Positions 44,989-53,004 of a DNA stretch of 64,000 nt are shown one piece after another. Source of the stretch: Bradyrhizobium sp. (GTDB lineage Bacteria > Pseudomonadota > Alphaproteobacteria > Rhizobiales > Xanthobacteraceae); the NCBI RefSeq assembly GCF_022844465.1, contig NZ_JALHLP010000012.1:12694-76693 (forward strand), in the 5' to 3' direction. How positions within the stretch are numbered: position 1 is the first letter of the stretch; the number at the start of each line of letters is the position of its first letter. The position numbers and the translations under genes were made by a program. The notes under the pieces are model-generated. The model was given only the letters and a program-made list of their open reading frames with translations. It made no database searches and was not told the DNA's origin.

Positions 44989-46047
44989 ATGGCGCGAATG
45001 GTTCGCCAATCCCTCGTCAAGTTCGATGCGCCGTTGTGCGAAACCATCATCGACACGCCGAAGCCGCAAGGCCGCGAGGTTCTGGTGCGCGTCGAGCGTT
45101 GCGGGCTGTGCCATTCCGATCTGCACATCCAGGACGGCTACGCCGATCTCGGCGGCGGCAAGCGGCTCGACACCACCCGCGGCATGACGCTGCCCTTTAC
45201 GCTCGGCCACGAGATATCAGGCGTCGTCGACGAAGTCGGCCCCGACGTCGCCAAGGACCTGATCGGCAAGAAGCGGGCGGTATTTCCCTGGATCGGCTGC
45301 GGCCAGTGCCGCGACTGCGCCAATGGCGACGAGAACCTCTGCGCCAAGCAGCGCTTTCTCGGCGTCGCCATCGACGGCGGCTTCGCCAGCCATGTGCTGG
45401 TGCCCGACGCCAAATACCTGCTGGAATACGATCCCCTGCCGGTCAACCAGGCGGCGACCCTGATGTGCTCCGGCGTCACCGCCTATGGCGCGCTGAAGCG
45501 GCTGGTCGATCGCCCGCGCCAGCGCAATCTGCTGCTGATCGGCCTCGGCGGCGTCGGCATGATGGGGCTTTCGTTCGCGCAAGCGATGTTCACGCAGAAG
45601 GTCGCGGTGGCTGATCTGAGCCCGGCTGCGCGCGAGAGCGCGCTGCAGAACGGCGCGTCCGTCGCCTACGATCCAGCCGAGCCCGACGTGATCAAGCGCA
45701 TGATCAAGGAGACCGAGGGCGGCTTCGACGCCATCGTCGATTTCGCCGGCAACGAGAAGTCGATGGCCTTCGCGGTCGCGGCGGTGGCGCGCGGCGGCAA
45801 GATCGTGGTCTCCGGCCTGATGGGCGGCAATTTCAGCCTGCCGATGGTGCAGTGGGTCTACAAACGCATGACGATTGAAGGGTTCATGGTCGGCACGCTC
45901 GCCGAGGGCAAGGAATTGATGGCGCTCGCCCGCGCCGGCAAGATCAAACCGACCCCGATGAAAGAAGAGCCGATGGCCGACGTCCAGAAATGGATCGAGG
46001 AATTGCGCGCCGGCAAGGTGGTCGGGCGGATCGTGCTGAAGAACTGA
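44989..46047 (+). CDS. Zinc-dependent alcohol dehydrogenase (MDR family)
   Basis: CHSD, GHEI, CGQCRDC..G..NLC structural Zn site, GLGGVG, C-terminal GRIVL. Confidence 0.93.
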   Translation: MARMVRQSLVKFDAPLCETIIDTPKPQGREVLVRVERCGLCHSDLHIQDGYADLGGGKRLDTTRGMTLPFTLGHEISGVVDEVGPDVAKDLIGKKRAVFPWIGCGQCRDCANGDENLCAKQRFLGVAIDGGFASHVLVPDAKYLLEYDPLPVNQAATLMCSGVTAYGALKRLVDRPRQRNLLLIGLGGVGMMGLSFAQAMFTQKVAVADLSPAARESALQNGASVAYDPAEPDVIKRMIKETEGGFDAIVDFAGNEKSMAFAVAAVARGGKIVVSGLMGGNFSLPMVQWVYKRMTIEGFMVGTLAEGKELMALARAGKIKPTPMKEEPMADVQKWIEELRAGKVVGRIVLKN

Positions 46048-46056
46048 GGCGGTGCG
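45989..46056 (+). repeat. adh 3'-end direct repeat, copy 1 (attL-like)
   Basis: AATGGATCGAGGAATTGCGCGCCGGCAAGGTGGTCGGGCGGATCGTGCTGAAGAACTGAGGCGGTGCG; 59/68 identical to copy 2. Confidence 0.9.
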
Positions 46057-46268
46057 TCTCGCATCATTTCGACCAAGATGCCGCTGACCGGGTGGACCGA
46101 CCTCGGGTGCGTCATGATCTTTCCTTCGACGACACTGGTGAAAATCCGTGCCGCGCAGATCGTTGGTTTCCCGACGGTCGGAAGCGCTGCTGTGCTGAGG
46201 TTGTGGCTTTGCCGCTGTCTTGCGACGAGCGTCGTGGATAGCCTGCGTAGGTACGAAGGAGATTCCGG

Positions 46269-47141
46269 ATGGATAACCAAGCACCCACGCCGCAGCCGCC
46301 CGTATTCAATTCGAATGCCTACAGCCCCGCCGAGATCGAGGAGGCCATTGAGAAAGTCGGGGTCACGAAGGCGAGATTGCCGTATCTCGCGTCGTTCATG
46401 CTTGCGATCGTCGCGGGCGGCAGCATCGGGCTCGGGGCGCTCTACTATACCATCGTCGCCAGCGACGCGGAGCTGAGTTTCGCTACGGTCCGCGTGCTCG
46501 GCGGCCTCGTATTTTCGCTCGGCCTGGCGCTGGTGATCGTCGGAGGCGCGGAGCTGTTTACGGGCAACAACCTGATTGTGATGGCGTGGGCCAGCCGGAA
46601 AGTTTCCACCGGAGAGATGCTTCGCAACTGGTTCATCGTCTACTTCGGCAATCTGGTAGGTGCGCTCGGCCTTGCCGTCCTGGTTCTTCTTTCCCATCAC
46701 CTCGACATGAACGGCGGCCGCGTCGGTTTGTCGATATTGAACACCGCTGTCTCCAAGATTCAGCCTGACGTCTTCACACTCTTTATCAAGGGCATACTGT
46801 GCAATGCGCTTGTCTGCCTAGCGGTTTGGCTTGCCTATGCGGGGCGGTCGGTCACCGACAAGATCGTCGCTCTCATATTTCCGGTCTCGGCTTTCGTCGC
46901 GGCCGGCTTCGAGCATTGCGTGGCCAACATGTATTTCCTGCCCCTGGCCTGGCTGATGACCAGCATAGGCAAGGTTCCTGACGGTTTCGACGCCTCCGCG
47001 ATCACGTTATCCGGGATCGTCCACAACCTCATTCCGGTTACCCTTGGCAATATCGTGGGCGGCGCCGGCATGGTCGGCGCCGTGTACTGGACGATCTATC
47101 GGGCCACGTTCGGCGCCGGGTCGGTTGACGAGAAGCGATAG
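46269..47141 (+). CDS. Formate/nitrite transporter (FNT) family channel
   Basis: AGGSIGLG, GAELFTGN, GNLVG, KGILCNALVCLAVW, GFEHCVANMY, VTLGNIVGG; AAGGAG RBS. Confidence 0.93.
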   Translation: MDNQAPTPQPPVFNSNAYSPAEIEEAIEKVGVTKARLPYLASFMLAIVAGGSIGLGALYYTIVASDAELSFATVRVLGGLVFSLGLALVIVGGAELFTGNNLIVMAWASRKVSTGEMLRNWFIVYFGNLVGALGLAVLVLLSHHLDMNGGRVGLSILNTAVSKIQPDVFTLFIKGILCNALVCLAVWLAYAGRSVTDKIVALIFPVSAFVAAGFEHCVANMYFLPLAWLMTSIGKVPDGFDASAITLSGIVHNLIPVTLGNIVGGAGMVGAVYWTIYRATFGAGSVDEKR

Positions 47142-47229
47142 CTCCTTTGACGAGCGTGATGGGTCCGCCTCAGGCCCGTCTTCGCTTGGCTTTGATCAAT
47201 GCAAGGGCTCGCCGCTACGATCCTGTTGC

Positions 47230-52700: not shown

Positions 52701-52857
52701 GCAGCGCATCGCGGTGCCGATGATCGGCGGGATGGTCTCCTCGACACTGCTCACGCTGATCGTGATCCCGGCGATCTTCGCACTGGTCAAAGGCTACCGA
52801 TTGCGGCCAGCGGAACGATGCGCGGTGGAGCAAATATCTTCAATCCAGTCAACGTGA
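49699..52857 (+). CDS. cusA: CusA/SilA family heavy-metal RND efflux transporter
   Basis: LPLDAIPDLSDTQVIV, PQVIEDQVTYPL, GPDATGVGWVYQY, EFMPNLNEG..LYMP, PSEMFET, WTMPIKARIDMLSTG, RVRPKMMT; Met motifs of Cu(I)/Ag(I) RNDs. Confidence 0.93.
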   Translation: MIARLIGWSARNLLLVLFGAGFAAAAGIYALVHLPLDAIPDLSDTQVIVYTEYPGQAPQVIEDQVTYPLTTAMLTVPKSKVVRGFSFFGVSFVYVIFEDGTDIYWARSRVLEFLNGVTSRLPAGVTPTIGPDATGVGWVYQYAVVSKELNLADTRAIQDWNLKFALAKAEGVAEIASVGGFVRQYNVILDPQRMRDLGITTQKLRDAIRASNADVGGRTVELSEFEYVIRGKGYLRSINDLGDVVLKANNGTPVLVRDVARVELGPDERRGITELNGEGEVASGIVLQRFGVNALDVIENVRKRFREIASSLPKSVEIVPVYDRSNLIYAAIDALKRTLFEESVVVALVCIVFLLHVRSALVAILMLPVGILMAFGAMKLLGLGSNIMSLGGIAIAIGAMVDAAIVMIENAHKHLERAEPGKSRVTVLIDAASEVGPALFFSLLIITVSFMPIFTLESQEGRLFSPLAFTKTFAMAAAALLSVTLVPALMVMFVRGRIVAEHRNPINRLLIWIYRPAIKAVMRAKTLVIFLAIVVLAISVWPARQLGTEFMPNLNEGTLLYMPTTLPGISVTKAGELMQTQDRIIRSFPEVASVYGKAGRAATATDPAPSEMFETVVNLKPKEDWRPGMTLDGLIAEMDKALQFPGVSNAWTMPIKARIDMLSTGIRTPIGVKVIGTDLVEIDKLARQIERVLKTVPGTSSAYAERGIGGYYLEVTPDREALARYGIMIQDVQDVIATALGGQTVTTTVEGRQRFPVNMRYPRDLRDNPQAIADNVLVPMPAGGAVPLGEVARVAPARGPTSIRTENGQLATYIYVDIRDRDLGGYVADAQRAVQASIQFPPGYYVMWSGQYEYLERAAARLKVVIPMTLTIIFLLLYLNFRSIAETLIVMLSLPFALIGGLWLMWWLGFNLSVAVAVGFIALAGVAAETGVVMLLYLNQALASITARREREGRPLTRDDLYDAVMEGAVERVRPKMMTVVAIMAGLLPIMWSSGTGSEIMQRIAVPMIGGMVSSTLLTLIVIPAIFALVKGYRLRPAERCAVEQISSIQST

Positions 52858-52923
52858 TTTGCCCCATCCGGTCATTGCGACGGAAATAAACCTGTTCTCG
52901 CTTCCCCCAATCAGCGACACCAC

Positions 52924-52988
52924 CTGTATGCCGCTCTTGTCATCGCCCTCGATAAACCGCCGCAGCCCCTTGGGACGTTCCGAATCCT
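52924..52988 (-). pseudogene. 5' fragment of a HigB (RelE/ParE superfamily) toxin gene
   Basis: Minus strand reads RIRNV-[2 nt]-KGLRRFIEGDDKSGIQ, matching rhizobial HigB N-termini as I recall them (M-R/K-IRNVIHKGLRRFIEDDD.SG.Q). The start codon position reads ACG, inside the att core. Confidence 0.55.
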
Positions 52989-53004
52989 CGTGCTGAAGAA
53001 CTGA
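52988..53004 (+). repeat. adh 3'-end core repeat, copy 3 (attR-like)
   Basis: Exact 17-nt match to 46031-46047, including the adh stop codon. Confidence 0.85.

Follow-up and report, generated by a model that had tools for sequence, protein, structure and literature searches.

Integrative elements that insert at the 3′ end of a gene leave a characteristic footprint: the target gene stays intact, its displaced 3′ end marks the far boundary, and units can accumulate in tandem. Phage 21 and e14, for example, integrate in icd. ICESt1 and ICESt3 are inserted at fda, and integrase-less derivatives (cis-mobilizable elements, CIMEs) can build up by accretion (PMC7563491). A similar footprint lies in a 64,000-nucleotide stretch of Bradyrhizobium sp. 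DNA (contig NZ_JALHLP010000012.1, positions 12,694 to 76,693; hereafter the window). Here the 3′ end of adh, a zinc-type alcohol dehydrogenase gene (44989-46047, + strand), recurs twice downstream, once behind a formate/nitrite transporter (FNT) gene and once behind a copper/silver-type efflux cluster (cus). However, gene-3′-end integrative elements have a fixed core and crossover, integrase-bearing relatives, and detectable excision, none of which was found at the adh locus.

Integron cassette arrays show a different likeness: units are added next to the anchor, older ones are shifted distally, and some hold a single gene. Nevertheless, the adh locus lacks intI, attI, and attC-like folds, and it contains multi-gene blocks with genes in both orientations.

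Homology-facilitated illegitimate recombination (HFIR) requires no integrase. Experiments have demonstrated it in transformation and, with low efficiency, in conjugation (PMC3240628). At rhs loci, it has also been proposed as the origin of strings of orphaned 3′ regions, and likewise for the effector-immunity arrays of type VI secretion systems (T6SS), whose integron-like look without an integrase was remarked upon (PMC5361080). The rhs C-terminal displacements and the Vibrio cholerae T6SS arrays share several features with the adh locus: a conserved upstream anchor; displaced 3′ fragments in the same orientation that keep their downstream partner; addition next to the anchor; and no integrase (PMC5361080). 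The anchors differ, theirs being a polymorphic toxin gene whereas adh is an ordinary metabolic gene whose stumps are functionless and decaying. So does the cargo, which consists of immunity genes in those arrays and of arbitrary accessory genes here (transporters, metal efflux, cytochrome P460, esterases). For this reason, selection for retaining old units is not obvious at adh.

Hotspots of horizontal gene transfer that are free of mobile elements are common, and their turnover has been ascribed to recombination in the core genes on either side (Oliveira et al. 2017, PMC5635113). The minimal mobile elements of Neisseria are the classical small-scale case (Saunders and Snyder 2002, as cited in PMC1538595). 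Like the adh locus, these combine two conserved flanks, strain-specific cassettes, and empty sites with an absence of mobility genes, their turnover being attributed to host recombination. However, hotspot models invoke double homologous crossovers, which are scarless, whereas the adh locus has non-homologous right-hand joints. Because these joints leave adh stumps behind, successive events can be read from the sequence.

The adh locus adds a new case to a known kind of event; what is unusual is the plain metabolic anchor gene, together with scars that give the order of events. Mobile-element genes are missing from most hotspots of horizontal transfer, whose way of gaining DNA is usually inferred from statistics alone. 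The adh stumps and the DNA that trails them are physical scars, and they point to one-sided homology followed by an illegitimate join, a laboratory-demonstrated pathway rarely documented in natural genomes outside toxin and immunity loci.

An insertion hotspot behind adh

Scans with the adh protein yielded 80 loci from species-representative genomes and 80 from metagenome contigs; adding the window gave 161 loci. The adh proteins in both sets are 88-94% identical to that of the window, and all are Bradyrhizobium-like. The left side of the locus is conserved, with rsmA-adh synteny in nearly all of the 160 related loci whose upstream flank was recovered. On the right, the conserved flank (57236-58982) comprises RF1 (57357-58310, +), an open reading frame (ORF) that has no Pfam match and shares 30-50% protein identity between species, and gmk (guanylate kinase, 58329-58982, −; Pfam Guanylate_kin), which is well conserved and followed by two more genes. 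Interval statistics come from the 65 genome loci with both flanks recovered, from adh to RF1; in the further 15 genome loci the tract exceeds the fetched 10-kb flank or the contig stops before RF1.

What lies between the two flanks differs greatly, from 158 nt to more than 10 kb over the 80 species genomes, with 1.5 to more than 10 kb of cargo in loci that are not near-empty. Sixteen of the 65 loci are near-empty, with 158-476 nt between the adh stop codon and RF1 (the emptiest, L044, L055, and L002, have 158-172 nt). About two dozen carry a single gene for a periplasmic binding protein, and the rest hold 2-10 kb of unrelated cargo. Greedy ORF calling in the cargo gave 310 ORFs in 151 clusters, whose annotated representatives have ordinary accessory functions, including caspase-domain/DUF4189, AsnC regulator, tannase, GDSL lipase, cytochrome P460, short-chain dehydrogenase, LysR regulators, fatty-acid desaturase, pflB/pflA, MFS transporters, and aminotransferase. 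Neither the cus cluster nor the TRAP transporter operon of the window occurs behind adh in any of the 160 related loci. A complete focA, the FNT gene, is present behind adh in L009 and L043, and a 3′ fragment of focA alone in L080.

The interval from adh to RF1 and gmk is almost certainly an insertion hotspot. Two conserved flanks that enclose differing content or nothing are also the hallmark of the mobile-element-free hotspots described above. An earlier note, made from the letters of the window alone, had suggested serial insertion behind adh, and the empty sites, the differing cargo, and displaced adh ends (in the window and in nine other loci) bear this out. It had advised a search of relatives for empty sites, which were found, and for other cargo or an integrase between the same repeats; the cargo is indeed very different, but no integrase was found in the 161 loci. 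Relatives neither share one uniform 7-kb block nor lack empty sites, and it is on this ground that the hotspot reading stands. The note's variable region was too short, however. It ended at 53004, whereas blastn and tblastn matches to the relatives' right flank start at about 57236, so the TRAP operon and 56000-57235 are lineage-specific as well. The full tract spans 46048-57235 (11.2 kb).

The adh locus is a conserved and apparently permissive site where Bradyrhizobium lineages park adaptive cargo (copper efflux, TRAP uptake, pfl/focA, P460). It may serve comparative ecology, and possibly strain engineering as a neutral integration site.

Some content recurs at the edges of the interval. The gene for a periplasmic binding protein lies directly 3′ of adh in about 24 loci. 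A three-gene block adjoins RF1 in about 25 loci (for example, L003 13738-16051 and L005 11143-13101), though not in the window; it encodes a caspase-domain plus DUF4189 protein and includes two ORFs without Pfam matches. These therefore look like semi-stable resident modules at both edges of the hotspot.

Displaced adh ends

In the window, a repeat search aligned 45989-46056 with 47230-47297 over 68 nt, ungapped, at 87% identity (59/68). The second stretch corresponds to the closing 59 nt of adh and the 9 nt beyond it. It retains the adh frame and stop codon (TGA, 47286-47288), and six of its nine differences from the first fall within 12 nt. The final 17 nt of adh, TCGTGCTGAAGAACTGA (46031-46047), recur exactly at 52988-53004 and with one mismatch at 47272-47288; this 17-mer has no other match on either strand of the 64-kb window, and none in 100 shuffles. 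These three adh ends, here called copies 1, 2, and 3, are those that the earlier note had reported, including the ungapped 59/68 repeat and the exact 17-nt third copy.

Copy 1 is the end of the live gene with about 15 nt of trailing sequence, GGCGGTGCGTCTCGC (45989-46062, +), which resembles that of L015, L033, and L043; adh-derived sequence stops there, about 15 nt beyond the stop codon. Copy 2 is a displaced stump (adh nt 1001-1059; 47230-47288, +), which an nhmmer profile of adh also recovers (47228-47287, E = 3e-8). Its homology starts abruptly at 47230, and the profile finds no adh homology upstream of it in the window. Copy 3, the shortest stump (52988-53004, +), comprises the last 17 nt including TGA and is probably the resident, oldest adh end. 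After the stop codon, copy 1 reads GGCGGTGCG and copy 2 GACGGTGCG, with the arm G(G/A)CGGTGCG in common; copy 3 reads CGCGTCGCC, unlike the other two, just as had been noted.

A hairpin follows copy 3 (stem at about 53016-53047), with a 13-bp perfect stem, a folding energy of −38.3 kcal/mol, and z = −6.0. It had been taken for the native adh terminator. The fold is strong and resembles the region after intact adh in L030, L027, and L038, which favors that view; yet it has no U-run and is absent from the terminator-scan list.

Stumps in other loci were sought with an nhmmer profile of 81 adh genes over all loci and the window, with a 17-mer scan (at most one mismatch to each locus's own adh end; 161 loci, 2.2 Mb total), and with blastn. 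Partial adh copies were found in nine of the 160 relatives. They cover adh nt ~1016-1059 in L004 and L006; 1008-1059 in L015; 965-1058 in L036; 750-1059 in L121; and both 574-887 and 928-1059 in L043, with an 8-kb pfl-focA block between the two. L050 and L080 share a relic of nt ~981-1059. In addition, L080 has a pseudogene of nt 828-1058 that is frameshifted and contains an internal stop, and a relic in which nt 739-798 are fused to the last 24 nt of the gene.

Every stump lies downstream of an intact adh and on the same strand, and all but two fragments reach through the stop codon. Seven extra matches came from the 17-mer scan, all of them downstream of adh on the + strand; the minus strand had none, nor did the 1.14 Mb of upstream flank. 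A conserved anchor followed by displaced 3′ fragments of itself, all in one orientation, is the arrangement of HFIR arrays. The upstream edges of the stumps are scattered: they fall at adh nt 574, ~745, 828, 928, 965, 981, 1000, 1008, 1016, and 1043, or some 9-10 positions over 470 nt. Repeat lengths vary correspondingly (17, 24, ~45, 52, 59, ~78, ~93, 131, ~230, and ~310-330 nt).

The most heavily stacked case found is L080 (11059-18270), in which four adh 3′ relics stand behind the intact gene. Their ends lie at 13830, 15236, and 16038, with an internal piece at 15160-15219; between them lie an FNT 3′ fragment, a response regulator, a cytochrome P460, and a GDSL lipase.

Trailers and before-and-after pairs

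The DNA that trails adh falls into recurring types. Type A (GGCGGYGCGTCTCRCATCGTTGC...) stands behind intact adh in two loci (L015 and L033) and behind the stumps of L036 and L050; window copy 1 has its first ~15 nt. Type B, about 110 nt long with a GCGACAGCG..CGCTGTCGC palindrome, accompanies window copy 2 (47289-47390, +). It follows intact adh in L001, L004, L006, L010, L021, and L121, as well as the adh pseudogene in L080. These assignments rest on MAFFT alignment with the relatives, blastn-short being too insensitive for type B. Type C opens with CG... and continues into a GC-rich hairpin; it is found behind intact adh in L030, L027, L038, L054, L058, and L065, and behind window copy 3 (53005-53060). 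Each stump thus carries downstream DNA that in another lineage follows an intact adh.

Type B is conserved across species despite the differing cargo behind it, and it also bears a conserved AAGTTAAGTGCNC.GTCACCG motif. Related motifs lie just upstream of the stumps in L004, L036, and L050. Type B may be a terminator or regulatory element, or merely a conserved adh trailer.

Two before-and-after pairs of loci spell out this relationship. In the first, L121 3241-3864 (a stump and the DNA downstream of it) is colinear with L052 10750-11348 (an intact adh end and its downstream DNA) at 88.8% identity, and on the left side L121 1-2060 matches L052 9037-11082. Relative to L052, L121 has an insert of 1.18 kb, which consists of a type B trailer and a cytochrome P460 gene. 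In the second, the insert measures 768 nt and contains no called ORF of at least 80 aa; flanking it, L004 11835-13995 and L003 11017-13163 are colinear at 86.9%. Thus, in these pairs as in the trailers of types A, B, and C, displaced fragments are colinear with their former downstream DNA, which is again a property of HFIR arrays. The two adh 3′ copies of L121 are identical at 278 of 310 positions (89.7%), with mismatches spread throughout. Because they diverge as much as adh does between species, the duplication in L121 is not a recent internal one.

Probable import anchored in adh

On balance, these observations probably reflect import of DNA anchored by homology within adh and completed by an illegitimate join on the right, through an HFIR-like or Campbell-type event. 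What is inferred here is the route of recombination, together with how and in which direction the DNA was transferred. DNA from another Bradyrhizobium lineage would enter with that lineage's adh, trailer, and cargo, and would pair with the resident, highly conserved rsmA-adh region as its homologous anchor. The far end, lacking good homology, would be joined illegitimately, often inside the resident adh, in its final few hundred nucleotides. RF1, at 30-50% conservation, is too divergent to serve as a second anchor, in contrast to adh at about 90%, and for this reason the right-hand join is taken to be illegitimate. The product would be an intact chimeric adh, the donor trailer and cargo, a resident adh stump running from the joint to the stop codon, and the resident downstream DNA. 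Alternatively, a Campbell-type single crossover of a circularized fragment bearing an adh 3′ piece would give an identical product.

Repeated events would stack units, with the newest next to adh and older ones pushed downstream, and later deletions would trim cargo and stumps alike. In the window, the newest unit would comprise the live adh, 15 nt of trailer A, the truncated pfl-focA cluster, and an 88-nt spacer; the next, the 59-nt stump, trailer B, the plasmid-type cus cluster, and a 130-nt spacer; and the oldest, the 17-nt stump, the trailer C hairpin, the TRAP operon, and a 1.2-kb tract with a hairpin element. The modules of the earlier note (FNT 46048-47297, Cus 47298-53004) should be shifted accordingly, a unit being better described as an adh end with its own trailing sequence and cargo. 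The right-hand, non-homologous joint of the newest insertion would then lie at 47229/47230, and that of the older insertion at 52987/52988.

The model fits the intact adh, the one-sided stumps on the same strand, their variable edges, the lineage-specific trailers, the stacking order, and the absence of mobility genes. In particular, stump edges that range from adh nt 574 to 1043 suggest random illegitimate joints rather than a single att core. Cargo is also trimmed within genes, as in the transporter stump at 46063-46188 of the window and the FNT 3′ fragment of L080, and deletion and illegitimate joining are therefore active here.

Several points weigh against this account. L080 and L121 have one P460-adh joint in common, and L080 has extra internal deletions, so stump length varies partly through later deletion; because such deletions alter stump length, independent joints must be fewer than distinct edges. 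No recent event was caught: among closely related strains (above 94% adh identity), none with another arrangement turned up, and the sole near-identical contig (L081, 99.85%) keeps the window layout. The metagenome scan likewise gave no relative above 93% protein identity; it added just one new stump (L121). Along the window adh, a nearest-neighbor comparison is uninformative, the closest relative having just ~90% nucleotide identity. As a gauge of extra recombination in the adh 3′ half relative to rsmA, pairwise distances were correlated between segments of the two genes; the values all fall at 0.63-0.74, and that half does not stand clearly lower, at a species-level sampling too coarse for such a signal. 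The joints at 47229/47230 and 52987/52988 have no donor sequence, so that microhomology is unreadable. Bradyrhizobium is not known to be naturally transformable, so delivery may be by conjugation, gene transfer agent, or another route. Finally, HFIR is rare in experiments (PMC3240628, PMC5361080).

Mobility genes and alternative explanations

No integrase or resolvase was found in the 161 loci by Pfam and NCBIfam searches of about 70 cluster representatives and the window ORFs, by PHROG profiles, or by motif screens. The last, six-frame screens of about 2.2 Mb for tyrosine-recombinase box II and the serine-recombinase N-terminus, are heuristic and gave false positives only. The PHROG screen covered 112 further representatives, and its results are those for 25 of 56 families listed, so the recombinase screens are not exhaustive. 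Among the families listed were two transposase matches with unnamed members, which are assumed to correspond to an IS3-family element in L031 (16048-17303, −). This element has an orfB with an rve domain (16048-16905) and an unannotated adjacent upstream ORF (16902-17303). It is the only mobility gene found in the surveyed intervals, and L031 has no adh stumps. The lack of a recombinase that the earlier note had remarked in the two window modules thus extends to the whole set of loci.

Site-specific integration in trans would nonetheless give a similar picture, with the adh end and its trailer as an attachment site and the FNT and Cus units as integrase-less tandem cassettes of a CIME-like, integron-like, or pdif-module-like kind. 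Direct repeats of a gene 3′ end around cargo are the classic footprint of an integrative element, and accretion of decayed att-flanked elements is documented (PMC7563491). Moreover, several units are small, with one gene each (focA in the window, P460 in L121 and L080); at least the last 17 nt of adh are common to all repeats; and a GGCGGYGCG-like motif stands after the stop codon of many copies. Such integration is quite improbable, however, in view of boundaries that lack an att core of constant length (repeats of 17 to ~330 nt, with some 9-10 upstream edges) and of divergence that in L121 runs along the whole repeat without an identical core block. No integrase was found at the site or in the tested window ORFs, and no intI-attI arrangement adjoins the array. 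The adh end with its trailer matches nothing among 72,556 plasmids, which yields no plasmid-borne attP-like copy. Trailers A and B lack stable structure and inverted arms: what follows copies 1 and 2 is no more stably folded than shuffled sequence (z = −0.42 and −0.05), with no attC-like or dif-like structure. No inverted repeats, and hence no transposon terminal inverted repeats, were found at the boundaries. The 768-nt module of L004, as noted, has no called ORF of at least 80 aa. All three junctions are spanned by contigs of four metagenome runs (activated carbon, 2015; biofilter and biofilm, 2024), which contain neither a repeat-repeat joint nor a back-joined form, a weak argument inasmuch as assembled contigs drop rare variants. 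A dif/Xer-like site in particular was considered and rejected: GGTGCG after copies 1 and 2 is not conserved among the loci (consensus GGCGGYGCG) and has neither paired inverted arms nor structure. The trans-mobilized or integron-style cassettes at one att site envisaged in the earlier note therefore fare poorly, given the variable repeat lengths, species-level divergence, and want of attC-like or dif-like structure or of an excised form. In a more specific version, the adh end and its conserved post-stop motif would be the genuine recombination site of an unlinked, unrecognized recombinase, through which plasmids and Bradyrhizobium chromosomes would exchange integrase-less mini-cassettes (focA, P460, cus), with stump lengths reflecting secondary erosion. 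This is very unlikely; if true, it would amount to a cassette system of the integron or pdif kind whose anchor is a protein-coding gene.

Another possibility, unlikely but less so than a cassette system, is that the stumps are eroded and interrupted relics of one or a few old adh duplications, partial or complete, tandem or imported, and that composite arrays then spread between lineages as the rsmA-adh and gmk flanks underwent plain double homologous recombination. Hotspot turnover by flank recombination is well documented (PMC5635113). Some relics are long (the two in L043, 8 kb apart; the L080 pseudogene; and that of L121), and some are shared, namely the joint common to L080 and L121, with further deletion in L080, and the relic common to L050 and L080. 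On the other hand, the adh 5′ half survives in no relic, and nearly all fragments reach the stop codon, whereas full copies eroding at random should have left remnants of other segments too. The trailers behind different relics are of different lineage types, and the before-and-after pairs show an insert with its own adh end. Tandem duplication within a genome predicts instead an identical trailer and cargo on both sides, along with nearly identical repeats; this variant is rejected, as trailer types differ and the copies are as diverged as separate species. Extended adh homology upstream of copy 2, which the earlier note had named as the sign of a tandem duplication, is absent from the window. 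It might also be argued that copy 3 is a chance match, leaving one genuine repeat pair in the window; it is short, and some 17-nt repeats are not impossible in a window of 65% GC. Chance is scarcely credible, however, for the exact terminal 17 nt of adh, stop codon included, on the same strand and within the variable tract. The shuffles gave no such match, and those in the 2.2 Mb scanned all lie downstream on the + strand. A short stump of the same type occurs in L080 (15213-15236; 24 nt, one mismatch), and an adh-type hairpin trails copy 3.

Anatomy of the window

The genes leading up to the hotspot are lptFG-lptD-surA-pdxA-rsmA-adh. Immediately upstream of adh lies rsmA (44111-44965; Pfam), and adh itself, the left anchor, is intact (Pfam ADH_N, ADH_zinc_N). 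Cargo genes have a GC content at third codon positions of 0.68-0.84, compared with 0.85-0.87 in neighboring core genes, and overall GC falls to 57-60% across 46.6-47.6 kb. An Rfam scan of 44000-58400 gave no matches.

Behind trailer A, the newest unit has the last 42 codons of a YidE/YbjL/AspT-type transporter gene (46063-46188, +), which mark the left truncation point of an imported pfl-focA cluster. The stump was recognized by tblastn with residues 490-531 of the 532-residue L043 transporter (59.5% identity, E = 4e-12; family from NCBIfam). Next comes the focA-like FNT gene (46269-47141, +; Pfam Form_Nir_trans, E = 6e-75), whose product is 85-89% identical to the L009 and L043 versions. By blastn, window 46075-47141 aligns with L043 17477-18544 at 88%, and homology ends exactly at the focA stop codon. 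In L009 (13330-18972) and L043 (13437-18544), focA closes an intact pflB-pflA-transporter-focA cluster (pflB and pflA by NCBIfam). The window focA is what is left of such a pflB-pflA-(YidE/YbjL-type transporter)-focA cluster, with pyruvate formate-lyase itself missing here. The 88-nt spacer between focA and the adh stump (47142-47229) has no match in any locus.

Beyond trailer B, the cus cluster (47444-52857, +; Pfam) contains a small ORF (47436-47807), a YtkA/FixH-like gene (47901-48308), CusB (48305-49702), and CusA (49699-52857). Its block 47444-52804 has 76-79% nucleotide identity to plasmid clusters of Bradyrhizobium and Nitrobacter. The 130-nt spacer that follows (52858-52987) has no DNA match in the first 80 related loci.

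A 60-aa ORF on the minus strand (52849-53031), a gene call in a public metagenome annotation, overlaps copy 3 and its hairpin. It has no Pfam match and no tblastn match in plasmids, and is probably a spurious call across the junction.

Downstream of copy 3, the TRAP transporter operon dctP-dctM-dctQ (53061-55970, −; Pfam DctP, DctM, DctQ) is convergent with the old adh end, and the type C hairpin is likely a terminator shared between that end and dctP.

An exact-protein look-up with the window adh gave no match. Look-ups with YtkA and FNT returned one 99.85%-identical contig of the same layout plus short fragments, and nothing else. The contig (L081/L086; JGI 3300002461, 328 kb) comes from a drinking-water/activated-carbon metagenome and keeps its 99.85% identity and the window layout across 20 kb. 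Fragments of the window sequence are also present in biofilter and biofilm metagenomes from 2015 and 2024 (runs X1-X4). Because of these matches, the organism and its adh-locus arrangement appear to be stable and widespread in water-treatment biofilters.

The rest of the variable tract (55971-57235) holds small unannotated ORFs and a conserved hairpin element (56972-57090, +). The element is an imperfect hairpin of about 110 nt, CAGGGAAGGCCCGG...CCGGCCTTCCCTG, followed by T8 (−68 kcal/mol, z = −6). It is 70-90% conserved in 13 related loci, where it lies within the variable tract, mostly upstream of RF1 or of the gene for the caspase-domain protein; L056 has it in reverse orientation, upstream of adh. 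The stem persists in RNAalifold, where 9 of 39 pairs show compensatory changes, and the element matches no Rfam family. It could be a small RNA, a terminator, or an element resembling repetitive extragenic palindromes (REP-like).

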